DNA from: Marsupella aquatica
Lineage: Eukaryota; Plantae; Marchantiophyta
DNA length: 64,000 nt
Reading direction: 5' to 3'
Assembly: GCA_973895155.1 (NCBI GenBank)
Contig: OZ316893.1
Coordinates: forward strand, 3,330,490-3,394,489
Positions 22,960-43,380 of the stretch are shown here, piece after piece. Made by a program: the position numbers and the translations under genes. The notes beneath the pieces were generated by a model. That model searched no databases, was not told the origin of the DNA, and saw only the letters and a program-made list of their open reading frames with translations. Numbering within the stretch: the first letter of the stretch is position 1; each line of letters begins with the position of its first letter.

Positions 22960-24513
22960 CTAATGCCTGGCACGCTTGCCAGAGCCGCCTGAATGGGAGC
23001 GGTCATCCCGCTGCCTTCAAAGCCTGTCATTGTCCGCCTTGAGGAGCTGGACCTGGTCCAACAGAGATTCGTTCTCTCGCCTCGCCGCGTCCGTCTCCTC
23101 TGCTGCCTCCTGACATGCCTCCTCCAGCTACTGGGCGTCGCTCGTCAGTTTACCCGCCAGCTGGTCCTGCTTCTCGGCCTCGGTTTGGAGCCGCGCCACC
23201 TCGGTCTGCAGCGTGGCTATCTCCGCCGTGTCCCGCTGGGCCCATTCCTCGGCCTCCTCCAGGTCTTTCTGCCAGGTGACGGTTTGATTCTTCAAACTGT
23301 CAATCTGGTTCCGGAGTCGTGTAATCTCGGCCTCGTTCCCAGCTTTGGCCTGTTCGGCTAGGGCGGTAAGAGCGTGCGCCTTTGCTAACAACTCATCGGC
23401 GGCTGCAACCTTGGGTCGTAGTTGCCGAAGCTCAGCCTTTTGAGCCGCAACTTCGTTCTTTAGGTACATGGACTCCACCCGGTACTGCTCTATCCGCTGA
23501 AGGGCCTCTGACTGGGCCCGACCTGCCTTTACTGCGGCAACCAACTCCTGATTGAAGAAATAGGCTACCTTCCGGGCCATGAACTCCCTGGTATCCCGGG
23601 CAATTTGATGAGAGAAGTCTCCCAGAAGCCCATTCAGAAATGTACCCGGTACGAAGAGTTCCGGGTGGTCCAGGTTGTGTCTATCCGGAGTTGGGCACGG
23701 GCAGACGTCAACACGTGCGGGGGCCGGGGCAGTGACGTCCAGCCCTGGGGACGTAACGTTGGAAGGGGCTGGAGTGTCCTCCTGCAGCAATGTCCGGTTC
23801 TCCAGAATAGCCACCGATGGGTCTTTGGAAGAACCGGGCTCGGGTAAGACCTCCGCCGTACCGACTTCTGTACTTAGCCCGGCTTGTTGGGTCGTATCAA
23901 CGGTTGCGACAACCGACCCATCCGGTACCTCCTTGGTTACGACTACAGCTACTTGTGGAGGTGGGGTGGGTGAAGCTGGCATGTCCGCTGGACTTCGGGC
24001 CTCGGGTTGGGGCCGTCTCTCCAAGGCCGGGAAAACCCACCTAGCTGGGACCAGCTTTGTAACGTTGACACGGGGAAGGGTTCGTCGATCAAACCGAGCG
24101 TACCACTCAAGAATGATCTCGATGTGGCTAGCGAAATACGCCTTCCCGCCAATGTACAGCGTCTTCCTTCGCCGCTCCATCTCTTCATGGAATTTCTTAG
24201 CAAAGTACGACGCCCACCTCCTAGGTTGATAGTTCTCGACCTGGATAACCTGGGCGGCGGAGATCTCTCCCCGGGGTTCCATCATGTGGAGGGCGTACCT
24301 CTGGAACTCCAGTCGCTCAGCTATCTCGGGGATGAGACAGGTCCTCATCACGAACCCGTTGTCCACTGCTCCCTCTGAGGGAAAACTTGAAGATTGGTAC
24401 TTGGCTCCCTTGCCCCCAGGAGCTCGTGATTCGACTCGATGGTCACCTTCGGGTAACCCGAAGATCATCCTGAGCCGTTCTTCCGTGAGGGACATACTCC
24501 TTCCCCGCAACCG
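22960..24513 (-). pseudogene. LTR-X accessory ORF, 3' part (conserved domain, P-rich linker, coiled coil, basic tail)
   Basis: In-frame continuation of the 40426 ORF across the Y insertion (YDDARQHT|RLRGRSMSL). Premature TAG 23128-23130 (CAG in copy 1); true stop 22960-22962. Confidence 0.85.
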
Positions 24514-25630
24514 AGTATTGTCACTTGCCTCTCCAACGGTTAATACGTGCAAACCGCACTTTTCTTCGCTTAAACCGTTGGTATCGTATTACGGGGTCGT
24601 GGAGGGACGCTATTTGGATTCTTTTCACACCAGGATGAGTATTTTGGTTTCCGCTCCCGGAAATGTAGGTTTTGATCAAGTCTACCGACTACCCTCACCC
24701 CACAGCTTTTGATCAAGTCCTGCCGACTACCCCACTACACCTTCACTCGGAGTCACCCAAAGAGTGCTGTCACCACCCCTACTCACAAGGCCGACTCAAA
24801 CCAAGCAAGTTTCTTCAAATCATAGAACGGGAGAACACAATTCGGAAAGCGAAAAAGGGAGAAGGAACACACAACAAAAGCCCATCAAGTCAAATGTACA
24901 GATCCATATCTCTTGGGAAAAAACGATACACATTGCATGAGTAACCCGGCCTCCTGCCGTCTACTCAACTCCTGCCTCTCCGGACAATGAGTATGGCTCC
25001 CCCTCACTACTCTGAACACGCTTTCAAACTCCTCAGGCTCCACTCTATCCCTCCTTGCTAACTTCACACTGAGTCCCCCTAACTACTTCGGGGCTATCCC
25101 CCTAAATACTGAAAAATCACACCAAAGCACCCCTCACAGGGTCACAACGGTGGCGGCTACCCTAGCGGCGCCGCTAAAACCTTGCACTAAGAGAAATCCT
25201 TAAACTGAAGAGGAGCATGCGGCACACACATGCTGCTAAAACCCTAAACCCAAAACAAGGGGGCCGACGGTGCCTTCGACGGCGCCCCAACAGTACACGT
25301 GAACCCTGAAAGTGAGAGGCACCCCAAAATGGCCGAAACTAGGTGCCCTTCCAAGTGCACACCTGAGCTCACCCCTGGATAGCTCTTCTTTTCCTGCTTC
25401 CGAATCACTAAGTCGCTCCCTCAACGGACTTCAGACGCCTGAGTTATGGCCGTTTCCGTACCGCAAAAACATAAGTTCTCCAGGCCATAACTTGCTCATC
25501 CTGGCTCCGTTTGAGGAGCGCCGCCTCTTGTTGGAATCAGCTCCGCGAGCTCATCCCAACAAGCCCATGAGTGACCCCCCACTAAAATGTTGGAAATCTG
25601 GAGGCCGTACACCCACGTCCGTACGCCTAT

Positions 25631-27487
25631 CTAATCCTCCTCTTCTTCTTCGCTCTCGGTGCCCGGACTTGTGCCCCGTGAGTGGTCCTCCTCCTCATCA
25701 CTCACGGGAGTGAGTGCCACCGTACTTTTCTTCTTCTTCGACGGAGTACTCTTAGTGCTGCTGCTCCCGCGCTTCCTCAAAGCAGCCAAGGCCTGCCACG
25801 CCTTGATGTACCCCTCACCAATTGTGTCCTTCCAGAGGGTAGCCTCTTCTCCGGACCGCAACTCCAACGGTAGAACTTGCCCCGTGGCCATGGGAGTCCC
25901 GGGGGTGACAGACCTGGGTGGCATCCCCGTACTGACCTGAGCCTCCCGTAACGATTTCCGTACCTCCCGGAGCTTCTTCTCCAAGCTCTTACTCTTCTCC
26001 TGACTCTTCTTGGCTCCATCCAACAAGGGTCCATACTTCCCACTAACCTCCTTCACCACCATCTCGATAGCTTGGGAGATCACATCCGGGGAAAGTGTGG
26101 AGCCAGGTGTGCCGGGACTCTTCCGTTTCCCTAGACTCAGGGCCTCACTTCTCTTCGCTCGTGTCTCAAAGGCTGCCACCTGACTCCGTAGTGCTCCCAC
26201 CTGGTTCCTCCACTCCATCACTTCTCCAGAATTTTGCTTCTCTTTGGCCAATGCTTGCCTCAACGCTCCTACTTCTTCTGCTTCCTTGGCCTTGGTGGAC
26301 AAAGCTCCCTTCAAGTTGGTGATCTCTACGTGAGCTGCATTGATGTGCCTGACCTTCTCATGAATGGTCTGCTCCTTGGTCTTGATCACCTCCTTCAGTG
26401 ACAGGATGCTCTGCTCTAACGTCTCTACTTTGACTGTGGCGTGCTTGAGAGACTCCCTCAATGCGTGGACTAGCTTGAGTCCCTCGTGGACTCCCTCTCT
26501 GAAATCCCGTAGCTCTGCCAAGTAAACATCCGGAATGTTGTATTCCAGAGGCTGTTTCGGATCTCCCACGAGTGATTCAAGCCACTCCAATGTGCAATCA
26601 TCCTCCTGGTTCTCTTCTTCTCTATTATCCTCCCCACCAGCAGACAATGATTCCTCCGTGAGCTTCCCTAAAACGGTAGTGGCAATACTCCGGATCTCCG
26701 TGGTGAGAGATGATCCCGTGTCTTCATGCCCCGGAGAACCAATCAACCCTTCTGCCCTGGCCAATACAAATGACCCCATCAAATGTACAGCCCCACCTGG
26801 TTTCACACTCCCGGGCTCAGCGGCCAATAGCTTCTTCAATCCGTAGCACCACCATCCGTACACATGGGCTGGGTAGTTCTTGATGTCCATAGCTACCACG
26901 AAATGCTCCTCATTCAGCACTCCGGATTGCACGTTGCCAAGAACCCGTTGATGCACCTTGGCCAGGAAGCCCTTATACTCAACATCCTTGACAGCAGAAA
27001 GAGGGATGGCGGTGGTGGAGGTAGGATTGGTCACCCAAGTGGCCACCATTTTCAACGTGAGTTCTCCCCTGATATTCCGAGGTGTGAATGAGAATTTCTG
27101 ATTCTCAAGAAACAATAGCTTAGCCAACTCCACATGGGGCACTACACGTTTGAGACATTCAAAGTAGATTCCCTCCGTTCGGAACTCCATCCCGGCCTCA
27201 ATGTCCCAGCTCTTCCCTGAAGGGATGGTAATCTCCACCTTCATGAATTCTGTAAGCCCGGTGGCTTGGAAAATGTTCCGACAATCCTCCATCACCTTGG
27301 TGGAGGTCTTGGGATAAATTCGACGAAAAATCTTCCTACCCACCGGTGAGGAACCCGCTGCCAATCCCGTGCTCATCATAACTTCTCTCTCTTCCCTTTC
27401 CCGTGTAATCCGAGTCTCCACGTAGTCACGGTAAGCAGCCTTGTATCTCCGAATGCGTGACGCACTAAACTCTGGTTGATCTAGCAT
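25631..27487 (-). CDS. LTR-encoded 618-aa accessory protein (globular N-terminal domain, long coiled coil, KKKK and acidic tail)
   Basis: Intact ATG-to-stop ORF wholly inside the 3' LTR, sense to gag-pol; identical copy in the 5' LTR. Confidence 0.85.
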   Translation of the reverse strand: MLDQPEFSASRIRRYKAAYRDYVETRITREREEREVMMSTGLAAGSSPVGRKIFRRIYPKTSTKVMEDCRNIFQATGLTEFMKVEITIPSGKSWDIEAGMEFRTEGIYFECLKRVVPHVELAKLLFLENQKFSFTPRNIRGELTLKMVATWVTNPTSTTAIPLSAVKDVEYKGFLAKVHQRVLGNVQSGVLNEEHFVVAMDIKNYPAHVYGWWCYGLKKLLAAEPGSVKPGGAVHLMGSFVLARAEGLIGSPGHEDTGSSLTTEIRSIATTVLGKLTEESLSAGGEDNREEENQEDDCTLEWLESLVGDPKQPLEYNIPDVYLAELRDFREGVHEGLKLVHALRESLKHATVKVETLEQSILSLKEVIKTKEQTIHEKVRHINAAHVEITNLKGALSTKAKEAEEVGALRQALAKEKQNSGEVMEWRNQVGALRSQVAAFETRAKRSEALSLGKRKSPGTPGSTLSPDVISQAIEMVVKEVSGKYGPLLDGAKKSQEKSKSLEKKLREVRKSLREAQVSTGMPPRSVTPGTPMATGQVLPLELRSGEEATLWKDTIGEGYIKAWQALAALRKRGSSSTKSTPSKKKKSTVALTPVSDEEEDHSRGTSPGTESEEEEED

Positions 27488-27904
27488 CCATGCATCCCGA
27501 AATCAATTTCTCAATCACCAATCCCGTCACCCGTGGCAATGTCAATTCCCTGGCCCGAAACAGCCCCCGTAGCCCGATCACTTAAATTCTCTCAATTTCC
27601 CGTCACTACTCCGTGCGGCCGCCACTAATGCCTGGAAGAATGACGCCAGCAAGCCCCACTAATCCACCATGAAAGAGAGAGCTTCAAAAATAATTAGAAT
27701 CTGGAGAGAGCTTCCGGCAAGAGAGAGAAGAACCCCGTTTTTGCTTTCGGCAATGAGAGGGTCGTGCAAAAGGAAGAGGGAAAGAAAAAGGAAGGAAAAA
27801 AAAATAGAACCGAAAAAACTCCTGGCGCCTTCGCCATGCGCCCCGGCCCATTTCTCGGGCCTTACCCTTGCGTCCTCCTGCGCGCGGCCCTATGCAGGGC
27901 GCGC

Positions 27905-28282
27905 GGCCATTCCTCCCGGCTCGCGGGAGGCCCTTCAACTCCCCCCCGCTCGCGTGATCCTCCCAGCTCGCGGGAGGCCCTTTAACTCCCCCCCGCTCGC
28001 GTGATCCTCCCAGCTCGCGGGAGGCCCTTTAACTCCCCCCCGCTCGCGTGATCCTCCCAGCTCGCGGGAGGCCCTTTAACTCCCCCCCGCTCGCGTGATC
28101 CTCCCAGCTCGCGGGAGGCCCTTTAACTCCCCCCCCCCCCGCTCGCTTGCGCTCCTTCAGCTCGCGGAGCCTCATTAATTGCCCGGGCACGCAGCCCTAT
28201 GGGCTCGCGAGGCAGCCCCTTCAGCTCGCGGAGCCCCATTAATCGCCCGGGCACGCAGCCCTATGGGCTCGCGAGGCAGCCC
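27905..28282. repeat. CpG-rich tandem arrays in LTR Y (47-bp unit x ~5; ~64-bp unit x2)
   Basis: Unit GTGATCCTCCCAGCTCGCGGGAGGCCCTTTAACTCCCCCCCGCTCGC; one unit fewer in the 5' LTR (38650-38980). Confidence 0.9.
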
Positions 28283-28610
28283 CTCTTTCTCTCGGACGGC
28301 CACTAATGGGACTCGCCCTCCTGAGGAGGGATTTATTTAAAAAAAAACCCCCCCCTCTCCTGACTTTGCAATGGGGGTCTCAACAATAGCTCTTGAAGCA
28401 AAACGGTAAGTCCTATGGGGCTGGTCCTGGCTAGTTTCAAGGTCCCAAAATATTTGCCCACTTAGGTCGCCGCAAATCTTAGAACTATTATGAGAGAAAG
28501 AATATAAAGTCACCTGGGGCATCATCAACCTATAATGACGGAATTAACTAAAAATTAAAAAATGGCTTATTTACATTGACTATTAACAAGGTATCGGCCT
28601 TTGCAACCAG

Positions 28611-31600
28611 TTATGTGTGACTTCCCGTGACGGGGTACCCGTCACATAGCTCCTCTCTTAATTGCGAAGCGCCCCCGCGAGCACCATACTCTTCCTCCGT
28701 GTAGTACTTCTTTAGGCGCTCTTGATTGATCCGTGTGTTGAGTAGTTGCCCCTCCAATGTCTTGAGTTGAACCGAGCCGTTGGAGTAGACGGCATCCACT
28801 ACGTAGGGTCCCATCCACCGTGTATGCAACTTCCCGGGGAAATGCATGAAGCGGCTATCGTAGAGGAGCACCAAATCTCCCTCCTCAATGGACACACGAC
28901 GGAGACGGGAATCGTAATGTGACTTGCGTTTGCCTTGCTCCTGCTCCGTATGTGTCAAAGCCTCTTCTCGTGTCTCCGTGAGTTGCTCCAACTGTTGGAT
29001 CCGTGAAGCGACACTTTCTTCTGCCCCTTCCCTTTCCCGTGTTAGGATTCGAATGGTTGGAACCTCAAATTCCACCGGCACAAGAGAGTGTTGTCCAAAC
29101 ACAAGGAAATAGGGGCTGTGGCCCGTGGTAGTCTTGTGAGCCAGGTTGTAAGCGTAAGTGGCAGCCAACAACTTCAAATCCCAATCGGTCTTGTGAGCGG
29201 ATACCGTTTTGTTGAGGATCTTGCCCATGATCCCGTTGGCTCTCTCAGTGAGCCCGTTGGCTCGAGGGTGGTACGGAGTGGTCTTCCTATGTGAGATCAA
29301 GTAGTTCTCCGTCAAACGTTCAATCGTATGATTGAGGAAGTGAGTACCCCTGTCACTTACCAACTCCAATGGTGGACCAAATCGTGTAAAAATCTGCTCA
29401 TACAAAAAACGTGCCGTGGTGTTGGCATCATCCTTGGCAGTAGCTCGGGCCTCCACCCACTTGGTGGCATAGTCCGTTGCAAGAATGATGTAGCGCTTCC
29501 TCCCTCTTCGTGTGATGGGAGTGAAAGGGCCAATGAAGTCCACCCCCCACTTCTCAAAGGGTGCAAGAGGAAGTATGGGCACCAATGGGTGTCGTGAGGA
29601 GGGCCCTGGTTTGCCTTGACGCTGGCACGGATCACATCGCTGGATGTACCGGTGTACATCCCGAAAGAGAGTTGGCCACCAATATCCAGCATCTAGTATT
29701 TTCCTTGCGGTGGTCTCCCGTGCAAAGTGGCCACCAGCTTCCTCCTCATGTAATGCTGCCATGACTGTACGTATCTCCGCTTCCTCCAAACAACGACGAA
29801 GTCGGCCATCCATGCCGTACTTGTGAAGTACTCCCTTCACAAGCAAGTAGGGACCTGTCTTACGCAAAAACACTGCTGCTCTCTCCGGGCCCAAACGTGA
29901 GGGAACTCTAGCCGTGCGGAGAAATTCCAAAATTTCTCCATACCAAGTAGTGGCCTCTGTATTCACGCTGAACACTTCCTCATCCGGGAACCGATCATCA
30001 ATCTCCTGGGAGTCAGATGCTCCCTCAATACGGGAGAAGAAGTCTGCATTGCTATGACTCTTCCCCGATCTTACTCTCACCTCATAGTTGAACTCTTGTA
30101 GCAACAAAACCCAACGTGCAATTCTCCCGGACAGATCTGGCTTGTTGACCATGTATTTCAAGCTGTTGTGATCCGTGTGGAACACAACCTTGTACCCCAA
30201 CAAATAATGACGATACTTCTTACAAGCGTAGATGATACCAAGTGCCTCCCTATCGGTGGGTGAGTAGTTTTTCTCTGCCGGGGCCAACTGCCTACTGGCA
30301 AAGTAGATGGGATGGTCTCTTCCATCATCATCTAACTGACTCAAAACGGCACCGATGCAAAATCCTGATACGTCTACGTAAACATGGAATTCCTTATTCC
30401 AATTGGGCGTAATGAGCACGGGGGCCTCTAGCAATCGTTTCTTCAATTCATCAAAAGCAGCCTGACGGGAAGGAGTAGGTTCAAACTCACTTCCTTTTTT
30501 CAACATGGAAGTGAGTGGCATGGCTACCTTGGCAAAGTCTTTGATGAAGCGTCGGTAGTAGCCAACACACCCCAAGAACCCTCTCACTTCCTTCACATTC
30601 TTGGGAAATGAGACTGCTACCCACACGGCGACCTTCTCACGATCAACTTCAATCCCTCGTGCAGACACTTTGTGGCCCAATAGGATTCCCTCCTCAATTC
30701 CAAAGAAACATTTCTCCGGATGCAGCTTCAGGCAAGTCTCCCGGCACCGCTGAAAAGTCAACCGTAAGTGTTCCGGATGCTTGACTCGTTTGCCGTAGAC
30801 AGCAAAGTCATCAATAAAGATCTCCAAGAACCTGCGTAAAAAGTCATGAAATATATTCATCATGAGCCGTTGGAACATGCCAGGGGCATTGCACAACCCA
30901 AAAGGCATTCTCCGGAATGCAAAAATCCCCCACTCTGTTGTGAAAGCCGTCTTGAGTTGGTCCTCCTCCCGTATCCAGATTTGGTTGTACCCAGAGTAGC
31001 CATCCAAGAAGCTGTATATCTCCCAACCTGCTACCATGTCCAACACGATATCCGTGAACGGTAGCGGGTAGTGATCCTTCTTGGTCGCATCATTCAACTT
31101 TCGAAAATCTTGGCACACCCGTATTTTCACCTTCCCGTCTGGCCCCTTTTTCTTGGGCACGATTACGATGGGTGACACCCACTCACTATGCATGACCGGA
31201 TAAATGAATCCTGCATCCAACAAACGGTCAATCTCCTCCTTCACCATGAGTGAGTATTTGGGGTTGAGGCGGTATTGGCGTTGCCTCACAGGTCGTGCTC
31301 CTGACATCAGGTCAATGCTGTGCTCACCAAACTCAGGTGGCACTCCTTTCAAATCTTGGTGGCTCCACGCAAATACGTCTTGGTACTCTTTCAACAATTC
31401 CTGAATCGTGCGTTGCTCCGTAGCATCCAACTTACTACCAATGTTGAGTGTCTTGCCCTCACCCACTTCCACCTTTGTGTACTGCTCCGGCCTGATCACG
31501 TCCAACTTGTTGCGTGTCTCCTCATCAAAGGTTTCTTCCAACCGTGCGAGCCTCATCCCTCCATACACCGGTGCATCACTCTCCTCCTGGTCTGGTCGGG

Positions 31601-34600
31601 ATGGAGGTGGATCCTTTGTCACATGGGCCATTATTTCTTCAACGTCAGATTCTTTGTAATGTGACAATAGCTCCTCTCTAAAGTCATCATCCAGGATGTC
31701 ATTCAAAAACTGCTCTCTTTGCTCATCATCAAACATGATCGTGTGGGCTTGCATTTCCACCTCCTCGGGGTGATCCTCTCCCTCCCTATCATGAATCTCT
31801 AGAGGTTCAGCCTCCACAATTTTGCTTCGCTCGTCTTCCATCTCTTCTAGAACAGCGTGCACTTGGCTAACTGATTCCTCTACTGCATGCTCTTGAGTAG
31901 CAACTCCGGGGCCAAAAACATCTTCCTCCGTGAGGTGAGAAATCAGTTTCACCATGTATACTTCATCCTCGTCTTCATCTGAGGTGACCTCTGAATCATA
32001 TTCCTCCTCCATAGTCGTAGTCTCCCCGTGAGGTGACTCCGCTGACCATGGAATAGTGATAGTGGGGATACCAAACCGAAACTGCCGTTTGCCCCAATCA
32101 CTTGTGACCTTGGCCACATACAACCATGGCCTGCCAATTAAAATGGGAAAACCGTACGGCCGAACGGGTCGCATCACCAAATAGTTGAGGGGGAAAGATT
32201 TTCCCCCAATCATTGTTGGAATCTTGGTGAGACACCCCAACGGCACCACCCGTGCACCATCAGCCAACCTCATGGCACGTGCCGGTGGTTCTAACTCTGT
32301 ATACCCCAACCGGTTTGCCGTCTCCTCAGTCATGATGTTGACTCCCGAGCCCCCGTCCACCGGTACAAACCGTATTGCACATCCATTGATGTCCACCGTG
32401 AGTTCTGGGGCACCCAAATCCTCCGTGACCCAGTTGACTTGTATGGGGTCAGCCCCAACTTTGGGTAACCTTCTTCTACGTCTCCTCCTCATGAGAATCT
32501 CCTTGACTTGGCGACGGTATAGGGAGCTATCCCGTAATAGTTGACCAATTGTGGCACTGACTGGGCAATCCAGAATGTCTTGAGCAATGTTGTACGCGGT
32601 TGCAGGAGGTATGGGTGGGATGACCTCTTCTCCCGGTTTCCAACGAACAACCCTCTCCTCCGCTTTCTTTCTGGCCTTTGCCTCCTCCATGTCTTTGTCA
32701 ATGGCCGCTTGCATGGCTTGTGCTTCTAGCTCCTCCAACTGCTTACGTACCTCTTCTCCCACCTTCGGATAGAACAACTTGGGGTTGTCCCGATCAAAGT
32801 CACTATCCTCCATGGGTGGCACCTCCGGTTCGTGTGAGGTACCCGATGTGGAAGCTTGATGCACCTCCTTGTACTTCTGCTTGAGCTCGGACTTGCCCTT
32901 CTTTTTGCCGGATCGAGTGGAGACTCGGTAACAAGAGTAATGCCTTCTCTCCTCGTCGCTGTCTTCCTCCGGTAGATTCTCAGCATGAGTCCACTCATGA
33001 CTTGGGGGTGAGGGGTTAGCAACTTCAACTTCCGTAGATGTTGCAACAACAACCACCGGTATCTCAACAACTGGAGATACTACAACGACTAGCGGTACCA
33101 CCTCCTCCGTTATGGTGGTCATCCTTTGCTTGGGAATGTTCACTACGGTTTCTTCTCTTCTAGTGATTAGAGGGGTGTCGACTGCTTCCGTGGTGAGAAA
33201 GTTGACGCTAGCTTCTTTCAGAGGAGGTGGCGGCCCCTTCTTCTCTTGTGCCCCAATCGGTTGAGCCTTGAACGCCTCCAAGGTTGGGCAGTGTGGTGCA
33301 AGATGACCCTCCCCCTTGCATAGTTGACACAGCCGGGCAAAATCTCCATTGCCTTGACGGGTGGGCTCTGGGCACACATTAGCGTAGTGGCCCGCCACTC
33401 TACAATTGTAACAAATAGGGATCTTCCTCACTCCAGGGTACGGTGGTCGATTCCCTGGGTTAGCGTTGGGATAGTTGGAGTATGCGGGTGCTCCGGCGTT
33501 TGTTGAAACTCCATGAATGCTCCGTGGTCCCGGGTTGAGAGGTTGTACACTATACACGTTGGCCTCTGGTGGCTCCTCCATGAAGTACTCTATTGGCCCT
33601 TCCGCTGCATATGAAGGATTTGAGTAGCTTGCCCCCTCAACATCCTCCTCCCGTACTTGGAAAACCTTGGCTGGTTCTCCCGCTGGGCACTCCTTCGGGG
33701 CATGACCAAACTTCATGCACTTGGTGCACCACACATTGGCTCTCTCCACCGGAACTTTTCTCCTCTCAGGTTTGAGTCCGGCAAAATGTACTTTCAACGC
33801 TTTCATTTGCTCCGTCAGCTCATCATATCTGGCCTCTTGCTCCTTCAGGCGTCTTGCCGTAGACAATGGTGTAACGGCCACCGTGGGTAGTATCACTTCA
33901 CGGTGAGAGGACTTCTTGACTTTCTTTGACAACTTCTTCTTCTTCCTCCTTCGTCTTTCAGCTTCTGACTCCGTAGTGTCTGACTCTGTAGTACTCTCAG
34001 AATCCTCAGATTCATCACTACTATCTGAATCAGATCCACTCGACTCCTCACTGGAGGAACTGTCAACCGGCTTCAGCTTCTTTCTTCGGCAACGCTTGCT
34101 TGTGGCATCAGCTGCGGTGTATGACTCCGCTGCTGCAATAGCTTCAGCCAATGTGGTTGGCTTGGCTTGACGTACAAAGAACCCCATCTTGCTTGGTAGG
34201 GCAGCCACAAACCAGGCTTGACGCATAGCATCATCGGTACGGGCTTGGATCCGACGTACCAGCTTTTGGAACCTTTGCAAAAACCTCCGTAATGACTCCT
34301 TCTTCTTCATCCTGAGTTGGCCCACCTTTAATAGTGAGGTGGCCTCCACTCCTATGGATCTGAACTCCTTCAAGAAGGCTTGCTTGAACAGAGCCCAATC
34401 AGCTTTCACGTTGGCCAACAACGAAATGAACCATGGACCTGCCTCCCCTCTCATCATTCCAGGAATGATAGTGAGCTTATGTGCAGACTCCCCATTAGCT
34501 TCGGCAATCCCTTCAAACTCCTCAATCCATTCGTCTGGATCATCCTTTGGTCTCCCCTTGAAGGGTACGTACTGAACACGGGTACGTTGTGCAGCTGCCA

Positions 34601-35009
34601 TCGGTGCAGCCGGTGCCTGTATCAACACAGGTGGTAATGGCGCTTGTTGGGCCACCGGTAACAGCACCGATGATAGGTGTGAGATGATTTGTGGCAATGC
34701 AGTGAGCTCTGGGATCAGATTTTGTAACTCAGACTGCACCAACACAAAGGGCTCTCCTTCTTCTCGCTCGTGATCTATGTCTGGCTCTTCGTCTGGGCAT
34801 ATGGCCTCATTACGTTGAGCCTCTTCCTGTTGCACACCAACTTGTTCTTCCAGCACCAGTGGCAACCTCCTCTCTTCTGCAAGCCGTAAGCGTTCTTCGG
34901 CAGCAACTCGTCGTCTGGTCCCAATCCAAGAGGGCCCCCCTTCTAGCTCTGATCTTGGGGTACGTGTGTGTTGGGGACTTCCTCTACCTCCCCTTCTCCC
35001 TCTCGGCAT
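28611..35009 (-). CDS. gag-pol: Gag-Pol polyprotein, 2132 aa (Gag, 3x CCHC, PR, RT, RH, IN)
   Basis: Knuckles CTKC..H..C, CYNC..H..C, CQLC..H..C; PR VDGGSG; RT FLDGYSGY, MPFGLCNAP, FIDD; RH VDVS..DREAL..TDH; IN HH-CC, WGVDF, SDRG, TERAN, GPY. Confidence 0.97.
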   Translation of the reverse strand: MPRGRRGGRGSPQHTRTPRSELEGGPSWIGTRRRVAAEERLRLAEERRLPLVLEEQVGVQQEEAQRNEAICPDEEPDIDHEREEGEPFVLVQSELQNLIPELTALPQIISHLSSVLLPVAQQAPLPPVLIQAPAAPMAAAQRTRVQYVPFKGRPKDDPDEWIEEFEGIAEANGESAHKLTIIPGMMRGEAGPWFISLLANVKADWALFKQAFLKEFRSIGVEATSLLKVGQLRMKKKESLRRFLQRFQKLVRRIQARTDDAMRQAWFVAALPSKMGFFVRQAKPTTLAEAIAAAESYTAADATSKRCRRKKLKPVDSSSSEESSGSDSDSSDESEDSESTTESDTTESEAERRRRKKKKLSKKVKKSSHREVILPTVAVTPLSTARRLKEQEARYDELTEQMKALKVHFAGLKPERRKVPVERANVWCTKCMKFGHAPKECPAGEPAKVFQVREEDVEGASYSNPSYAAEGPIEYFMEEPPEANVYSVQPLNPGPRSIHGVSTNAGAPAYSNYPNANPGNRPPYPGVRKIPICYNCRVAGHYANVCPEPTRQGNGDFARLCQLCKGEGHLAPHCPTLEAFKAQPIGAQEKKGPPPPLKEASVNFLTTEAVDTPLITRREETVVNIPKQRMTTITEEVVPLVVVVSPVVEIPVVVVATSTEVEVANPSPPSHEWTHAENLPEEDSDEERRHYSCYRVSTRSGKKKGKSELKQKYKEVHQASTSGTSHEPEVPPMEDSDFDRDNPKLFYPKVGEEVRKQLEELEAQAMQAAIDKDMEEAKARKKAEERVVRWKPGEEVIPPIPPATAYNIAQDILDCPVSATIGQLLRDSSLYRRQVKEILMRRRRRRRLPKVGADPIQVNWVTEDLGAPELTVDINGCAIRFVPVDGGSGVNIMTEETANRLGYTELEPPARAMRLADGARVVPLGCLTKIPTMIGGKSFPLNYLVMRPVRPYGFPILIGRPWLYVAKVTSDWGKRQFRFGIPTITIPWSAESPHGETTTMEEEYDSEVTSDEDEDEVYMVKLISHLTEEDVFGPGVATQEHAVEESVSQVHAVLEEMEDERSKIVEAEPLEIHDREGEDHPEEVEMQAHTIMFDDEQREQFLNDILDDDFREELLSHYKESDVEEIMAHVTKDPPPSRPDQEESDAPVYGGMRLARLEETFDEETRNKLDVIRPEQYTKVEVGEGKTLNIGSKLDATEQRTIQELLKEYQDVFAWSHQDLKGVPPEFGEHSIDLMSGARPVRQRQYRLNPKYSLMVKEEIDRLLDAGFIYPVMHSEWVSPIVIVPKKKGPDGKVKIRVCQDFRKLNDATKKDHYPLPFTDIVLDMVAGWEIYSFLDGYSGYNQIWIREEDQLKTAFTTEWGIFAFRRMPFGLCNAPGMFQRLMMNIFHDFLRRFLEIFIDDFAVYGKRVKHPEHLRLTFQRCRETCLKLHPEKCFFGIEEGILLGHKVSARGIEVDREKVAVWVAVSFPKNVKEVRGFLGCVGYYRRFIKDFAKVAMPLTSMLKKGSEFEPTPSRQAAFDELKKRLLEAPVLITPNWNKEFHVYVDVSGFCIGAVLSQLDDDGRDHPIYFASRQLAPAEKNYSPTDREALGIIYACKKYRHYLLGYKVVFHTDHNSLKYMVNKPDLSGRIARWVLLLQEFNYEVRVRSGKSHSNADFFSRIEGASDSQEIDDRFPDEEVFSVNTEATTWYGEILEFLRTARVPSRLGPERAAVFLRKTGPYLLVKGVLHKYGMDGRLRRCLEEAEIRTVMAALHEEEAGGHFARETTARKILDAGYWWPTLFRDVHRYIQRCDPCQRQGKPGPSSRHPLVPILPLAPFEKWGVDFIGPFTPITRRGRKRYIILATDYATKWVEARATAKDDANTTARFLYEQIFTRFGPPLELVSDRGTHFLNHTIERLTENYLISHRKTTPYHPRANGLTERANGIMGKILNKTVSAHKTDWDLKLLAATYAYNLAHKTTTGHSPYFLVFGQHSLVPVEFEVPTIRILTREREGAEESVASRIQQLEQLTETREEALTHTEQEQGKRKSHYDSRLRRVSIEEGDLVLLYDSRFMHFPGKLHTRWMGPYVVDAVYSNGSVQLKTLEGQLLNTRINQERLKKYYTEEEYGARGGASQLREELCDGYPVTGSHT
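28647..28660 (-). promoter_or_regulatory. Polypurine tract of Y
   Basis: TAAGAGAGGAGCTA immediately 5' of the 3' LTR TG, inside the pol reading frame. Confidence 0.75.
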
Positions 35010-35226
35010 CCCATTGAGACCTGCATTCCAAACTTACACCAATGTCTCAGAAAGCAATATTTGTAAACATCAACCGTCGCACGATGCGTTGTGGTTGACG
35101 TACAATAACAAAGTAACCAACAAACTTCTCACGTATCAACCGTCGCAAGTTGCGTTGTGGTTGATAGGTTTGAACTCCCAATAGACGTAGCTCCCCTCCT
35201 TCGTGTCGTCAAACAAGAAGAAGGAT

Positions 35227-35244
35227 TCCCCGGCAGCGGCGCCA
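35227..35244 (-). promoter_or_regulatory. Primer-binding site, tRNA-Asp
   Basis: TGGCGCCGCTGCCGGGGA, complementary to the plant tRNA-Asp 3' end (..UCCCCGGCAACGGCGCCA, one mismatch); Athila-type PBS. Confidence 0.85.
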
Positions 35245-35264
35245 AAAACAAAAGACCACACTTA

Positions 35265-38200
35265 TGTCACTTGCCTCTCCAACGGTTAATACGTGCAAAC
35301 CGCACTTTTCTTCGCTTAAACCGTTGGTATCGTATTACGGGGTCGTGGAGGGACGCTATTTGGATTCTTTTCACACCAGGATGAGTATTTTGGTTTCCGC
35401 TCCCGGAAATGTAGGTTTTGATCAAGTCTACCGACTACCCTCACCCCACAGCTTTTGATCAAGTCCTGCCGACTACCCCACTACACCTTCACTCGGAGTC
35501 ACCCAAAGAGTGCTGTCACCACCCCTACTCACAAGGCCGACTCAAACCAAGCAAGTTTCTTCAAATCATAGAACGGGAGAACACAATTCGGAAAGCGAAA
35601 AAGGGAGAAGGAACACACAACAAAAGCCCATCAAGTCAAATGTACAGATCCATATCTCTTGGGAAAAAACGATACACATTGCATGAGTAACCCGGCCTCC
35701 TGCCGTCTACTCAACTCCTGCCTCTCCGGACAATGAGTATGGCTCCCCCTCACTACTCTGAACACGCTTTCAAACTCCTCAGGCTCCACTCTATCCCTCC
35801 TTGCTAACTTCACACTGAGTCCCCCTAACTACTTCGGGGCTATCCCCCTAAATACTGAAAAATCACACCAAAGCACCCCTCACAGGGTCACAACGGTGGC
35901 GGCTACCCTAGCGGCGCCGCTAAAACCTTGCACTAAGAGAAATCCTTAAACTGAAGAGGAGCATGCGGCACACACATGCTGCTAAAACCCTAAACCCAAA
36001 ACAAGGGGGCCGACGGTGCCTTCGACGGCGCCCCAACAGTACACGTGAACCCTGAAAGTGAGAGGCACCCCAAAATGGCCGAAACTAGGTGCCCTTCCAA
36101 GTGCACACCTGAGCTCACCCCTGGATAGCTCTTCTTTTCCTGCTTCCGAATCACTAAGTCGCTCCCTCAACGGACTTCAGACGCCTGAGTTATGGCCGTT
36201 TCCGTACCGCAAAAACATAAGTTCTCCAGGCCATAACTTGCTCATCCTGGCTCCGTTTGAGGAGCGCCGCCTCTTGTTGGAATCAGCTCCGCGAGCTCAT
36301 CCCAACAAGCCCATGAGTGACCCCCCACTAAAATGTTGGAAATCTGGAGGCCGTACACCCACGTCCGTACGCCTATCTAATCCTCCTCTTCTTCTTCGCT
36401 CTCGGTGCCCGGACTTGTGCCCCGTGAGTGGTCCTCCTCCTCATCACTCACGGGAGTGAGTGCCACCGTACTTTTCTTCTTCTTCGACGGAGTACTCTTA
36501 GTGCTGCTGCTCCCGCGCTTCCTCAAAGCAGCCAAGGCCTGCCACGCCTTGATGTACCCCTCACCAATTGTGTCCTTCCAGAGGGTAGCCTCTTCTCCGG
36601 ACCGCAACTCCAACGGTAGAACTTGCCCCGTGGCCATGGGAGTCCCGGGGGTGACAGACCTGGGTGGCATCCCCGTACTGACCTGAGCCTCCCGTAACGA
36701 TTTCCGTACCTCCCGGAGCTTCTTCTCCAAGCTCTTACTCTTCTCCTGACTCTTCTTGGCTCCATCCAACAAGGGTCCATACTTCCCACTAACCTCCTTC
36801 ACCACCATCTCGATAGCTTGGGAGATCACATCCGGGGAAAGTGTGGAGCCAGGTGTGCCGGGACTCTTCCGTTTCCCTAGACTCAGGGCCTCACTTCTCT
36901 TCGCTCGTGTCTCAAAGGCTGCCACCTGACTCCGTAGTGCTCCCACCTGGTTCCTCCACTCCATCACTTCTCCAGAATTTTGCTTCTCTTTGGCCAATGC
37001 TTGCCTCAACGCTCCTACTTCTTCTGCTTCCTTGGCCTTGGTGGACAAAGCTCCCTTCAAGTTGGTGATCTCTACGTGAGCTGCATTGATGTGCCTGACC
37101 TTCTCATGAATGGTCTGCTCCTTGGTCTTGATCACCTCCTTCAGTGACAGGATGCTCTGCTCTAACGTCTCTACTTTGACTGTGGCGTGCTTGAGAGACT
37201 CCCTCAATGCGTGGACTAGCTTGAGTCCCTCGTGGACTCCCTCTCTGAAATCCCGTAGCTCTGCCAAGTAAACATCCGGAATGTTGTATTCCAGAGGCTG
37301 TTTCGGATCTCCCACGAGTGATTCAAGCCACTCCAATGTGCAATCATCCTCCTGGTTCTCTTCTTCTCTATTATCCTCCCCACCAGCAGACAATGATTCC
37401 TCCGTGAGCTTCCCTAAAACGGTAGTGGCAATACTCCGGATCTCCGTGGTGAGAGATGATCCCGTGTCTTCATGCCCCGGAGAACCAATCAACCCTTCTG
37501 CCCTGGCCAATACAAATGACCCCATCAAATGTACAGCCCCACCTGGTTTCACACTCCCGGGCTCAGCGGCCAATAGCTTCTTCAATCCGTAGCACCACCA
37601 TCCGTACACATGGGCTGGGTAGTTCTTGATGTCCATAGCTACCACGAAATGCTCCTCATTCAGCACTCCGGATTGCACGTTGCCAAGAACCCGTTGATGC
37701 ACCTTGGCCAGGAAGCCCTTATACTCAACATCCTTGACAGCAGAAAGAGGGATGGCGGTGGTGGAGGTAGGATTGGTCACCCAAGTGGCCACCATTTTCA
37801 ACGTGAGTTCTCCCCTGATATTCCGAGGTGTGAATGAGAATTTCTGATTCTCAAGAAACAATAGCTTAGCCAACTCCACATGGGGCACTACACGTTTGAG
37901 ACATTCAAAGTAGATTCCCTCCGTTCGGAACTCCATCCCGGCCTCAATGTCCCAGCTCTTCCCTGAAGGGATGGTAATCTCCACCTTCATGAATTCTGTA
38001 AGCCCGGTGGCTTGGAAAATGTTCCGACAATCCTCCATCACCTTGGTGGAGGTCTTGGGATAAATTCGACGAAAAATCTTCCTACCCACCGGTGAGGAAC
38101 CCGCTGCCAATCCCGTGCTCATCATAACTTCTCTCTCTTCCCTTTCCCGTGTAATCCGAGTCTCCACGTAGTCACGGTAAGCAGCCTTGTATCTCCGAAT

Positions 38201-39343
38201 GCGTGACGCACTAAACTCTGGTTGATCTAGCATCCATGCATCCCGAAATCAATTTCTCAATCACCAATCCCGTCACCCGTGGCAATGTCAATTCCCTGGC
38301 CCGAAACAGCCCCCGTAGCCCGATCACTTAAATTCTCTCAATTTCCCGTCACTACTCCGTGCGGCCGCCACTAATGCCTGGAAGAATGACGCCAGCAAGC
38401 CCCACTAATCCACCATGAAAGAGAGAGCTTCAAAAATAATTAGAATCTGGAGAGAGCTTTCGGCAAGAGAGAGAAGAACCCCGTTTTTGCTTTCGGCAAT
38501 GAGAGGGTCGTGCAAAAGGAAGAGGGAAAGAAAAAGGAAGGAAAAAAAAATAGAACCGAAAAAACTCCTGGCGCCTTCGCCATGCGCCCCGGCCCATTTC
38601 TCGGGCCTTACCCTTGCGTCCTCCTGCGCGCGGCCCTATGCAGGGCGCGCGGCCATTCCTCCCGGCTCGCGGGAGGCCCTTCAACTCCCCCCCGCTCGCG
38701 TGATCCTCCCAGCTCGCGGGAGGCCCTTTAACTCCCCCCCGCTCGCGTGATCCTCCCAGCTCGCGGGAGGCCCTTTAACTCCCCCCCGCTCGCGTGATCC
38801 TCCCAGCTCGCGGGAGGCCCTTTAACTCCCCCCCCCCGCTCGCTTGCGCTCCTTCAGCTCGCGGAGCCTCATTAATTGCCCGGGCACGCAGCCCTATGGG
38901 CTCGCGAGGCAGCCCCTTCAGCTCGCGGAGCCCCATTAATCGCCCGGGCACGCAGCCCTATGGGCTCGCGAGGCAGCCCCTCTTTCTCTCGGACGGCCAC
39001 TAATGGGACTCGCCCTCCTGAGGAGGGATTTATTTAAAAAAAAACCCCCCCCTCTCCTGACTTTGCAATGGGGGTCTCAACAATAGCTCTTGAAGCAAAA
39101 CGGTAAGTCCTATGGGGCTGGTCCTGGCTAGTTTCAAGGTCCCAAAATATTTGCCCACTTAGGTCGCCGCAAATCTTAGAACTATTATGAGAGAAAGAAT
39201 ATAAAGTCACCTGGGGCATCATCAACCTATAATGACGGAATTAACTAAAAATTAAAAAATGGCTTATTTACATTGACTATTAACAAGGTATCGGCCTTTG
39301 CAACCAGTTATGTGTGACTTCCCGTGACGGGGTACCCGTCACA
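35265..39343 (-). repeat. 5' LTR of Y (4079 bp)
   Basis: TG..CA direct repeat followed by PBS. Confidence 0.96.
36377..38233 (-). CDS. LTR-encoded 618-aa accessory protein, 5' LTR copy
   Basis: Translation identical to 25631-27487. Confidence 0.85.
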   Translation of the reverse strand: MLDQPEFSASRIRRYKAAYRDYVETRITREREEREVMMSTGLAAGSSPVGRKIFRRIYPKTSTKVMEDCRNIFQATGLTEFMKVEITIPSGKSWDIEAGMEFRTEGIYFECLKRVVPHVELAKLLFLENQKFSFTPRNIRGELTLKMVATWVTNPTSTTAIPLSAVKDVEYKGFLAKVHQRVLGNVQSGVLNEEHFVVAMDIKNYPAHVYGWWCYGLKKLLAAEPGSVKPGGAVHLMGSFVLARAEGLIGSPGHEDTGSSLTTEIRSIATTVLGKLTEESLSAGGEDNREEENQEDDCTLEWLESLVGDPKQPLEYNIPDVYLAELRDFREGVHEGLKLVHALRESLKHATVKVETLEQSILSLKEVIKTKEQTIHEKVRHINAAHVEITNLKGALSTKAKEAEEVGALRQALAKEKQNSGEVMEWRNQVGALRSQVAAFETRAKRSEALSLGKRKSPGTPGSTLSPDVISQAIEMVVKEVSGKYGPLLDGAKKSQEKSKSLEKKLREVRKSLREAQVSTGMPPRSVTPGTPMATGQVLPLELRSGEEATLWKDTIGEGYIKAWQALAALRKRGSSSTKSTPSKKKKSTVALTPVSDEEEDHSRGTSPGTESEEEEED

Positions 39344-40426
39344 AGTATGTTGACGCGCGTCGTCATAATTCCTGACGAACTTCGTCATGTCCTCCCCGTA
39401 GTACCTGCAAGTGTTCCAGGGGAGGGAGGCGAGGTGCTTGAATCCCTGAGTCTTCAGGTACATCGCATGCTTGGGATGGAGGATGTTTTTGTGAACGTTT
39501 TCCCCCATGCGGTGCATCGTCACCTTGGCTATGGCTACCGTGGCCAACGGTAACCCGGATGCAGTGGCGGATTCCTTCCTCTTCTTCCCCCGTGACTGGC
39601 TCGGGGAAGGTGACACCTCCCCATCCTCCCGATCGGGCCTAGGTAGTGCCACTGCCGTTAGTAACGGGCCCGGGTCGGCCACGGTCACCATGTTGTCTGT
39701 CGGGGCCGCTCCTGGGGTCAGAGCAGGGGGTGGGGACGATATAGTGTCGGCCCCCTGAGCGCTTGTTCCTCTGGGCCACCTGGTCAAGGGTGGGGTAGCC
39801 TCGTCGTCATCGCTAAGATCCATAGCGTTGATGATGGAGCGTACTTGTGCTGGCTGGGCGATCGGTGGTGGGGTTTGGCTAGGCTGCGGCTGAGGCTGAA
39901 GCTGAAGCTGAACCTGAGGTTGTATAGGTACGGGTACGGGTACGGCTGAGTTGGTCATATTGGTTGATGGCCGAGTTCCCCTGAAGCTCTGTAGGTGCTG
40001 GTAGAAGTTCTCTGAAGCGAGTGCAGACGACCTTGTCAAACGGGTAGTGCTGGACTCGCTATTGATGATAGCCCAAACCTGAGCAGGGATGTGGTCGAAG
40101 TGATGTCGTTGCAAGTCGATCGTACCCGGGATATTGAAGACCTCATCCGGAAGCCGAAGCAATGCTTCCCAGAACCCGATATATTTGTCTCCGTTGAAGA
40201 AGTACCCAGATACCTCTGCTGGTTGGTAAAGCTCGCTCTGAGACGGGTAGTCAAAGTTAAGGATGTAGTGGTGTCGTCCTGCTAGGCGGATGGCTCTCTC
40301 GTACTCGCGTTCGATTTCGTATCGGCCCGGGTTGGCGTGTTTCAATGAGTCGGCCAAGTGCCTTTCGGTAGATAGGAACTGCATCCAGAATCGAATGGCC
40401 GAGCTAGAGAGGATCGTGTGCGACAT
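39344..40426 (-). pseudogene. LTR-X accessory ORF, 5' part (361 codons), interrupted by Y
   Basis: ATG 40426; globular N-terminus, Q/P-rich linker, RGKKRK NLS-like motif, start of the conserved domain. Confidence 0.85.
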
Positions 40427-40527
40427 TCAGAGGAGATAGTAGTGGCGACTTAGAGCGAACGAGAGAGCTGGGGTCGAAGCTGGTGCGTGGACTGATGGAC
40501 TGGTGCACTACAAAGGGTTGGCTCCCC

Positions 40528-40534
40528 TTTTATA
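40528..40534 (-). promoter_or_regulatory. TATA box upstream of LTR-X ORF
   Basis: GGTATAAAAGGGG about 100 bp upstream of ATG, followed by a pyrimidine-rich leader. Confidence 0.6.
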
Positions 40535-41419
40535 CCTTGAGGGCTTGTCGATCCTCCGACGTCTCCTCGACGCCCATAGGCTGAACCGCTCATGCTTGTG
40601 GTGTGTCGGCCACTCCGCCGGTCTGAGTCAGCGCGTGTCAGTGGCCGCTTCCTTAAGTTCGTTATACGGACCCGAGGGAGGGGCCCCTCCACGCTCGTAA
40701 CTCGGGTGTGCGAATAGCGACCCGCCGCCAGTCCAAACCTGAATTCCCCCTTATTGCCTAATGATGTCCTACCCATAATGATTACCTAAATACTATTGTT
40801 ATGCTAATAATAGCAGCCTAAGACACTCCTAACGCGCGTGCTGAGCGCAATTAGACCGAATCACTCATTAACCGACGTACCGGCGGCGTCACAGGGTTTT
40901 CTACTTATAATTCTTGAATGTATTTTTAAATATAGATTTTATCAGTTTTATAGTGCACTTAAGGGTGCCAAAAATTATCAGAAATTAATTTTTTAGATAT
41001 AGTAAGGGTAATGTAAATGAAGGAAAAAATACTAAGAAGGGGTAGGCAAGGGGGCTTCGGTCACAGGGGGTACACTTAGTATACATAGAGTGAGGGCCTA
41101 GGGAATTGGATTCAAGACACCATTTGAAATGAGGTACGTGCGTCAAGCAAATTACTCGGTAAATTATTCACATTTGAGGTTTTTGGATGTGATGCTTATG
41201 TGCTTACACCTTCCCAGCTTTGGTCTAAGTTGGAGCGAGAGTTGGAGTCCAAGTTGAAGAAGTGCATTTTCCTTGGATATCAGAAAGGTGTAAAAGGTTA
41301 TAGGTTATGAGATCTAGTAACCTCTAAATGAGTTGTCAATAGAGATGTTTACTTTAATGAATCTAGATCTTCAAAGGAGAGGGAGAGTTCTCATGACTTC
41401 CATACTGACAAGGGAAAAT

Positions 41420-42057: not shown

Positions 42058-42757
42058 AAATCTCTTATCCCGGACCCGGTTGGGGGGGAGATAAGTCATG
42101 ATAATGTTCATGATAGGAGAGAAATAGATGCTTCGGGTATGGAGCTAGTTCCAATGATGCAACAAGAGGAGTAGATTGATATTGGTGTACCTCAAATTTA
42201 GCCAGCAGCAACAGAAGATCAGTCTAAATCATCTACTAGAAGAACTCCCAATCATTCTACTAGAGCTCCTACTAGGTATGGTCAATGGGTTGATTCATCT
42301 AAACTAGATGATGTTAACATTGCGCTTGAAGATGATCATATGACATTGATCTTGGAAGAAGGAGAACCTTCTTCGTATCATGAGGCAAGTGCTTCAAAAC
42401 AGAAGCAAAAGTGGATTGTAGCAATGCAAATGAAGATGCAGTCACTAAAGGACAACAAGACTTGGGAGTTGGTCAAGCTTCCTAAAGGCCAGCAAGTGGT
42501 GGACATCAAGTGGGTTTACAAGCTGAAGGATCAGTCCATAGAAGGTGGATCAAAGGTCTACAAGACTAGGTTGGTAGCCAAGGGATTCACATAGGAGAAA
42601 GGTGTGGATTACAATGAGGTCTTCTCACCAGTTGCTAAGTACTCTACAATACAGCTATTATGTGTACTTGTTGTTTTATTTGGTCTATTACTAGAGCAAA
42701 TGGATATTGTCACAACTTTCCTCTATGGCAGCTTGGAAGAGGTCATCTTCATGAGAC

Positions 42758-43053
42758 CTCGGGGGTTTCACTTCCACAAAAATGGCATATCACGTGCGAC
42801 AAAGGAGAGGGTCATTTTATTGGTTCTAAGGGAAGACTTAAGAATTTTTGTAGAAGAACAATAGGGTCTTTTAAATTCAATTTAGAGACTTATAAGAATA
42901 TTAGGGTATTTTTAATCCAATTTTTAGAATATTCCAAGAATATTCCAACTTTATAGGGGTTAAAAATTTAAAAAAATTCTTACATTTTAGGGGGTCCGAG
43001 GCCTAAAAACGTCGCAGGCGATGGGGAGGTCCCCATATAGTGAGACCCCCGAG
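42758..43053. mobile_element. MITE family A, copy 2
   Basis: TIR CTCGGGGGTTTCACT / AGTGAGACCCCCGAG; 8-bp TSD CATGAGAC; highly similar to 20042-20339. Confidence 0.9.
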
Positions 43054-43380
43054 CATGAGACAACCGCTAAGTTTTCTAAAGAAAGGGCAAGAGGATTTGG
43101 TTTGCAGATTGATGAGATCATCCTTGTACGGGTTGAAGCAGTCACTAAGACAGTGGAATAAGAGGTTTGATGATTGGATCCGTGCATATAGGGTTTTCAC
43201 ATGAGTGTGTTTGATCCTTGTGTGTATCTTAAACCGGTGAAGAATGTTGTCTTTGGTTTCATTATTTTAGTACTTTATGTGGATGACATGCTTATTGCGG
43301 CCAATGATAGATCTGAGATTGTTTACTAAGCTCAAGGAAATGCTCAATGCAGAGTTTAAGATGAAGGACTTAGGGTTAGC

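Follow-up and report, generated by a model that had tools for sequence, protein, structure and literature searches.

Can the long terminal repeat (LTR) of a plant retrotransposon house a protein-coding gene, and what would such a gene do? The question is raised by a 64,000-nucleotide stretch of DNA from the liverwort Marsupella aquatica (contig OZ316893.1, positions 3,330,490 to 3,394,489), the whole of which is called the window here. A Ty3/gypsy element at 24519-39343 on its minus strand carries an open reading frame (ORF) for a 618-amino-acid (618-aa) protein inside each of its two LTRs. The ORF is very probably a protein gene under selection. The explanation of the whole that we consider best, with a probability of roughly one half, is that of an Athila-like element which absorbed an accessory gene into its LTR, the product being a nuclear, PMD/VANC-like anti-silencer.

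The limits of the element are defined by TG..CA ends, a target-site duplication (TSD), a primer-binding site (PBS) and a polypurine tract (PPT), all four of which were located where a preliminary description of this DNA had placed the LTRs. Self-BLAST of the window returned a single direct repeat of this kind, 98.8% identical, formed by the 3' LTR (24519..28646, 4128 bp) and the 5' LTR (35265..39343, 4079 bp), both on the minus strand and both reading TGTGAC...GTGACA. The two differ by one substitution and 49 gap bases, the 3' LTR containing one extra 47-bp tandem unit and two extra G. The TSD, AGTAT, is present at 24514..24518 and 39344..39348. The PBS, TGGCGCCGCTGCC (35227..35244, minus strand), is of the tRNA-Asp/Asn (Athila) type with one mismatch to the published TGGCGCCGTTGCC, and begins 20 nt past the 5' LTR, the spacer being 35245-35264 (minus strand). 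The PPT is a run of 10 purines (28650..28659, minus strand) within the coding end of the integrase, 3 nt before the 3' LTR. The LTR end at 24519 is supported by four contigs of the public run X1, which diverge into other sequence at exactly this position.

The internal region consists of a 255-nt leader and gag-pol and nothing else. Gag-pol is a single uninterrupted ORF of 2132 amino acids (28611..35009, minus strand) with Pfam matches to gag, zf-CCHC, protease (PR), reverse transcriptase (RT), RNase H (RH) and integrase (IN), in the pol order PR-RT-RH-IN, so that the description of a gypsy element with intact coding capacity stands. Its stop codon lies 36 nt into the 3' LTR, and no spacer separates pol from the LTR. 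One substitution in 4079 bp means that the insertion of this intact element is very recent. An assembly artefact, or a segmental duplication mistaken for LTRs, is extremely improbable. That the comparison of full-length copies was confined to the window leaves some room for it, but the TG..CA ends, the exact 5-bp TSD, the PBS and the PPT are in place, contigs that stem from other insertion sites diverge at 24519, and exact-match contigs of the runs X1-X3 bridge the ORF stop into the non-coding LTR.

Several further details of the element were recorded. At the LTR start (39322-39343, minus strand), GTGACGGG...CCCGTCAC is a short inverted repeat with the potential to fold into a hairpin. Self-priming was ruled out because the best complement of the PBS spacer within the LTR is only 8 nt long. 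One base at 24918, in the non-coding LTR, is absent from nearly all of the X1, X2 and X3 contig depth and is either a private variant or a consensus error. A lone 491-bp RNase H fragment (7237-7727, minus strand) is 90% identical to the pol of the element. No tRNA and no Rfam match was found anywhere in the 64-kb window.

The ORF (1857 bp) occupies 36377..38233 in the 5' LTR, corresponding to LTR positions 1111-2967, and 25631..27487 in the 3' LTR. Both copies are on the minus strand, in sense to gag-pol, and encode identical proteins; about 1.1 kb of LTR remains beyond the stop codon. The claim that an intact ORF lies wholly inside each LTR is thereby confirmed, and that of two gene copies per insertion follows directly from the sequence.

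Intactness alone is uninformative, because the LTRs differ by one substitution and exact-match contigs dominate. The LTR is present in six public runs, across four organism labels, and at least half of its words occur in five of these. For four runs, contigs were aligned on 24300-27740, and the counts that follow refer to the best-supported 40 of 533 variants and to 12 of 54 indels. Synonymous changes account for 9 of the 12 variants in the ORF, against an expected fraction of 0.23-0.31 (p 0.0002-0.002). Eleven indels are in the non-coding LTR, none of them a multiple of 3, and the sole indel in the ORF is of 3 nt. The open frame of the real LTR extends over 623 codons; the longest in 1000 shuffles of the LTR was 294 (mean 155). 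Codon usage of the ORF correlates with that of gag-pol with r 0.73, whereas r is 0.05-0.47 in each of the other five frames. The ORF stop is spanned into the non-coding LTR by exact-match contigs of all three runs X1-X3, the start by those of X2 and X3, and contig depth, which is no copy number, is alike within and outside the ORF (about 1570-1660 in X1 and 6010-6330 in X2).

Relatives of the protein were recovered by a full HMMER search, which gave 13 homologues at E <= 0.001, jointly covering the whole protein. Nine are fragments of 43-62% identity and four are proteins of Calypogeia fissa (27-32%); P0014 is a further Calypogeia fissa homologue, and all homologues with an organism name are from this species. 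The N-domain, a W-x-x-x-L-x-G-D linker motif, the coiled coil and a C-terminal LWK..I..GY.KAW motif are kept across them. A word-indexed search with the single 618-aa protein found none among 7994 candidates, and a metagenome scan with it gave 36 pattern matches, 0 of them confirmed. Lack of conservation, which the preliminary description had named as grounds for abandoning its claim, is not what was found: there is a synonymous excess, the indels keep the frame, and homologues reach as far as Calypogeia. The ORF could be a passenger, either a gene captured from the host or from a DNA transposon, or an insertion nested in one LTR and then copied to both, and still intact only through the youth of the family. 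No named protein family was found for it, which suits a passenger, but the excess of synonymous changes and the preservation of the frame by indels in older subfamily variants, the extension of the 43-62% identity over all parts of the protein, the gag-pol-like codon usage and the occurrence of the same layout in a second family make this improbable.

The second family is represented by the insertion site itself. The unit at 22065..40893 (minus strand; 3999 bp without the insert, TGTGAC...GTGACA, TSD AACCC) is read as a solo LTR, and the element was inserted into its ORF. This ORF begins with an ATG at LTR position 468, preceded by a TATAAAA at LTR position 360 (40528-40536, minus strand), and is divided by the insertion into 39344..40426 and a part containing the coiled-coil end, 23128..24513 (both minus strand). 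The open frame measured across the site is 822 codons, and the ORF stops about 0.9-1.1 kb from the LTR end. A second, internally shorter copy of this LTR, cut by the window edge (1..1813, plus strand), is without about 1 kb of the ORF, and no TGGCGCC-type PBS follows its end at 1813. The first and the second LTR family have no significant DNA or protein similarity. Their layout is common to both: in each, the LTR is about 4 kb long and includes a long coiled-coil ORF, in sense, which ends about 1 kb before the LTR end. Among the variants of the second-family ORF listed, 8 of 8 are in the third codon position and 7 of 8 are synonymous (p 0.0003-0.0014). Contig depth over this LTR is very high. 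A piece of its ORF found 0 of 499 candidates in a word-indexed search and had no Pfam match; the centre of the ORF resembles what we take to be an Athila-ORF/Transposase_32 motif, which no Pfam or homologue match backs. Because this apparent solo LTR holds a long ORF, LTR-borne genes would be present in two families and would persist in a solo LTR. The earlier claim that the gene outlives solo-LTR recombination is thus borne out by the 3999-bp LTR of the second family, but the same was not seen for the 618-aa family. The insertion of the element into a solo LTR with a gene of its own is new relative to the preliminary description, as is the 20-nt PBS spacer.

The 618-aa protein is composed of an N-domain (residues ~55-245), an acidic linker, a coiled coil (~325-520), the conserved C-terminal motif, basic patches and an acidic tail. 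Its top 19-residue hydropathy is 1.09, which indicates that there is no transmembrane segment; the coiled coil, the acidic tail and the lack of such a segment had all been described before. The env-like ORFs of plant retroelements were excluded as a candidate for the same reason. Pfam gave only weak coiled-coil matches, at residues 309-487, and the Pfam profiles ATHILA ORF-1, Transposase_32, PMD and DUF1985 had no match in the proteins P0001, P0009, P0012 and P0014. The lead came from the Calypogeia homologue P0009, which aligns with residues 57-241 (28% identity, E 1e-19). Atlas structure matches to the N-domain of P0009 have TM scores of 0.59-0.70 in 8 of 10 cases, the last two being 0.33 and 0.29, and among the clusters matched are some whose members carry Transposase_32 (99% of members), DUF1985 (75%), ATHILA (73%) or PMD (14%). 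The N-domain is therefore likely, on the strength of predicted models, to have a PMD/Transposase_32/DUF1985-like fold, and the ORF is likely to be an Athila-type accessory gene. Models of the 618-aa protein itself were poor, AlphaFold2 reaching a pLDDT of 34.0 without an alignment and 46.9 with 10 sequences, and with these poor models as query Foldseek found no match in PDB and BFVD at E <= 0.001. VIA-align (best Z 5.1, one helix only) and a sequence search of PDB (best E 0.086) were likewise uninformative. The protein is probably, as judged from modelled structure, a remote member of the Athila-ORF/Transposase_32/PMD/DUF1985 group and not a new kind of protein. Since this group is already known from internal ORFs, the novelty is in the position of the gene.

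To which lineage does the element belong? The Athila row of REXdb gives a 5-bp TSD, an Asp-type PBS, a single ORF and no extra domain (PMC6317226). The element agrees in its 5-bp TSD AGTAT, in its PBS and in the lack of an aRH domain and a chromodomain. Pfam detected neither domain at E <= 0.1 across the entire polyprotein, and separate scans of the PR-RT linker, the RH-IN linker and the C-terminus at E <= 0.05 were also negative for both. The identity of RT-RH is 44-47% to four elements whose PBS is of the Athila type, as against 28-37% in most comparisons with other gypsy pols. The PBS spacer of 20 nt does not conform: it is AT-rich and 3-6 nt long in Brassicaceae Athila (10.64898/2026.03.20.713144), and 4-6 nt long in 88 of the 114 PBS matches in the loci that were fetched. 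Because of this spacer the element is called Athila-like and not Athila. Tat elements without aRH (Tat Z2) are reported from liverworts (PMC13468544), and the element may alternatively be one of these. The Tat lineages with aRH (TatI-III, Ogre, Retand) were excluded, as there is no aRH domain. Phygy and Selgy, which have a 4-bp TSD and a tRNA-Trp or tRNA-Ala PBS and have only the missing internal spacer in common with the element, were excluded as well.

A pattern scan for LTR-PBS junctions gave 114 loci, of which 113 were examined; in these, the LTR protein, 14 homologues and the second-family ORF had no match at E <= 0.001. Thirty junctions had at least 2.5 kb upstream, and two of them, L025 and L028, were set aside as ORF-dense and probably bacterial. 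Among the other 28, a sense ORF of 200 aa or longer was present upstream in two cases (330 and 201 aa), and no such ORF reached 400 aa. Pfam, run on 59 of the 79 non-pol ORFs in the LTR-PBS loci, detected no ATHILA, no Transposase_32 and one PMD domain. In one Athila-type element, an ORF downstream of pol (L064:1809-2321, minus strand) matches Viral_NABP/Carla_C4 with E ~2e-5 and resembles a carlavirus nucleic-acid-binding protein.

As a best guess, the gene would have entered the LTR by a shift of the PPT. The ancestral accessory ORF would have been located, in sense orientation, downstream of pol and ahead of the 3' LTR; a PPT newly formed where pol ends, upstream of the old one, would have turned the region including the gene into U3; and reverse transcription, which copies U3 to both LTRs, would have placed the gene in both. 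The ~1.1 kb after the stop codon would be the 'old' LTR, and the spacer between pol and the LTR would have been lost. This origin is suggested by the 3'-forward position of Athila extra ORFs, by pol running directly into the LTR and by the ~1.1 kb left past the stop. In REXdb, 166 of 168 ATHILA-ORF1 matches are 3'-forward (PMC6317226). Each LTR would then be transcribed as a unit of its own, from a promoter within the first 0.3-0.9 kb; poly(A) would be added in a U-rich stretch some 0.3-0.4 kb short of the LTR end, and the genomic RNA would start at a second site downstream of the ORF. A 5'-untranslated-region intron may be present at 38378..38611 (minus strand), where motif matches indicate a donor at 38611, acceptors at 38447 and 38378 and a pyrimidine-rich stretch. 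The chances that the ORF lies in U3 are about even.

Placement of the ORF in a long R/U5 rates almost as good, tentative as it is. The sole promoter would be near the 5' end of the LTR, the genomic RNA would have the ORF as its first cistron, expression of gag-pol would depend on splicing over the ORF or on read-through, and the gene would have been gained by a downstream shift of the PBS. The second-family solo LTR, with its canonical TATAAAA at 360 and ATG at 468, fits such a single promoter. In the first family the only TATA-like word upstream of the ORF is TAAATA at about +308, there being no TATAWA anywhere in the LTR; donor-like sites are present at +733, +3226 and +3900, and the gag ATG is preceded at 12 nt by an acceptor-like site; and the 20-nt PBS spacer is longer than those of the Brassicaceae Athila and of most fetched loci. 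Against R/U5 stand the 3'-forward rather than 5' position of Athila accessory ORFs, the termination of pol within the LTR without a 3' spacer, and a pyrimidine patch with a telobox-like TTTAGGGTTTT past the ORF (+3300-3420). The patch and TTTAGGGTTTT may be the place of a second transcription start.

An anti-silencing role of the protein is slightly less than an even bet and is argued by analogy with VANC. PMD is similar to DUF1985, a domain of the anti-silencer VANC (10.1101/2024.09.27.615353), the targets of VANC accumulate as tandem repeats (PMC5735166), and oligomerisation through coiled coils is predicted for VANC and for the Athila domain (PMC13547354). The 3' ORF of sunflower Athila combines Transposase_32 with a nuclear localisation signal (NLS) and terminal helices (PMC11728184). 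Upstream of the 618-aa ORF there are CG-rich tandem repeats, 3.8 copies of a 47-bp unit and 2 of a 64-bp unit in the 5' LTR (38657..38981, minus strand), and 4.8 and 2 copies in the 3' LTR (27911..28284, minus strand). The heptamer CGCGAGC is concentrated in them (11 of the LTR's 12 copies, at LTR positions 374-673), with one copy in the internal region and two across the other 49 kb of the window. The repeats may be a binding array: the N-domain would bind the array of its own LTR, the coiled coil would oligomerise the protein, and silencing would be countered in trans on all copies of the family, solo LTRs included as a source. Since PRC2 represses transposable elements in bryophytes (10.1101/2022.10.24.513474), the protein could act against either H3K27me3 or DNA methylation.

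The protein might, less probably, be a true accessory factor with another task, such as nuclear import or chromatin tethering of the integration complex, RNA export or particle assembly. Reviews propose these roles, and according to them function has been shown for no Athila or Retand accessory ORF (PMC11963269, PMC7264820). The basic patches and the coiled coil fit equally well, and host PMD proteins have been linked to both silencing and anti-silencing (10.1101/2024.09.27.615353, PMC13547354). VANC, however, the only transposon-encoded member of the fold group of shown function, counters silencing in a sequence-specific manner, and it targets tandem arrays such as the one upstream of the 618-aa ORF.

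A number of observations weigh against the Athila-like element with an absorbed anti-silencer gene. No Pfam family was found for the N-domain even at E <= 5. Every Atlas match is below the bar at which the tool names a family, the P0009 model has a mean pLDDT of 0.51, and the feature search with the 618-aa protein itself returned ATHILA and Transposase_32 clusters only at lead level (0.80-0.82). Alignment by hhalign was not significant, either to one PMD sequence (probability 0.25%) or to the second-family ORF (1.6%). The selection counts were drawn from the best-supported variants only, and 10 of the 12 ORF variants fall within 60 bp, so that they are not independent. Five of the 14 contig joints listed are low-depth deletions within the ORF, and decayed copies therefore exist. 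The homologues from Calypogeia and from Logan/ENA are protein-level matches and could be located outside LTRs. Between the two copies of the second-family ORF in the window there are 14 synonymous and 23 non-synonymous changes in 247 codons, which is near neutral, and the ORF has in-frame stops at 23130, 23019 and 22962; both are expected of ageing copies. Tandem Repeats Finder (TRF) lists no tandem array in the second-family LTR, which weakens the argument from the motif array.

Accessory ORFs of plant retrotransposons are placed in the internal region (PMC7264820), in agreement with what had been stated at the outset for Athila and Tat. In the main text of the REXdb study extra ORFs are classed only as up- or downstream of pol, so that precedents within LTRs might be concealed among them, and Marchantia is not named there (PMC6317226). 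A search of the open-access literature by exact-phrase matching, a weak negative, found no account of a protein-coding gene within a plant retrotransposon LTR, and the passages of two papers considered as precedents (PMC1560396, PMC3286476) proved irrelevant. The element is like Athila, for example sunflower Athila 14, in its 5-bp TSD, its tRNA-Asp/Asn PBS, its one gag-pol ORF, its lack of aRH and chromodomain and its length in the range of 12-15 kb; its sense accessory ORF has NLS-like patches, coiled coils and, by prediction, the same N-domain fold as the PF03078/PF20167 ORF of Athila. Unlike in Athila, the accessory ORF is in both LTRs and has no Pfam match at the sequence level, the LTRs are of 4.1 kb instead of the default 1-2 kb, and the PBS spacer is 20 instead of 3-6 nt. 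With VANC of the VANDAL (MuDR) elements and with the host PMD proteins MAIN and MAIL1 the protein would share a DUF1985/PMD-like domain and a coiled coil, a likeness that rests on predicted models of a 28%-identical homologue; as in the VANC system, there is a tandem array of a short motif in the non-coding DNA of the element. VANC, MAIN and MAIL1 are, in contrast, DNA-transposon or host genes of flowering plants.

Outside plants, the sag gene of the retrovirus MMTV (mouse mammary tumour virus) is an ORF in the U3 of the LTR and encodes a membrane superantigen; further retroviral genes overlap U3 as well. Sag resembles the present gene in lying entirely within the LTR and hence occurring twice per insertion; it differs in that the 618-aa protein is without a transmembrane segment and falls in a plant-transposon fold group, and that the element has no env gene. 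Gene23 of Grande, TRP28 of Retand and the PMD genes of Ogre are likewise family-wide accessory genes for nuclear proteins with SMC-like coils, but are mostly antisense, internal between pol and the 3' LTR, and found in aRH-bearing Tat. Gene23 of Grande is reported to have its own promoter (PMC11963269, PMC7264820, PMC6317226).

Other features of the window were also noted. Directly behind the second-family LTR copy ending at 1813, the region 1891-6079 (plus strand) contains a 282-aa ORF that includes an acidic repeat. SNF2 (E 3.5e-20) and Helicase_C pieces come after this ORF, and the whole may be a single spliced gene or a transposon with a remodeller as cargo. The N-part of the 282-aa ORF, which has no Pfam match, looks like what we assume to be an Athila-ORF/PMD motif. 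NPF/PTR2 transporter genes are duplicated at 10119-13926 and 48132-51968 (87.7% identical). Copia relics are found at 18456-20340, with gag and pre-integrase matches at 18731-19966, and at 42100-43060; a 299-bp repeat is common to 20042-20340 and 42758-43054. Two inverted 24-bp tandem arrays about 0.85 kb apart (43523-44747) would resemble the subterminal repeats of DNA transposons.

A gene under selection appears to sit in the LTRs of two dissimilar families, which means that a solo LTR can code for protein. It is customary to regard plant LTRs as non-coding. Masking of solo LTRs as inert would hide such genes, or annotators would name them as host genes. The element offers a compact, very young and apparently intact system for the question of what Athila/PMD-type accessory proteins do, with the gene, the promoter and a candidate target motif together in one 4-kb unit. 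Long LTRs and short internal regions are reported to favour solo-LTR formation (PMC7497039), and the layout with the gene in the LTR may for this reason turn the cost of solo LTRs into a benefit. It is conceivable, though unlikely, that a liverwort Athila-like lineage long ago shifted a VANC-like anti-silencer into its LTR and that solo LTRs express it in trans. If this is true, a solo LTR would be a self-contained cassette of promoter, gene and target motif array, and solo-LTR recombination, the host's main route of deletion, would multiply the counter-defence rather than remove it.

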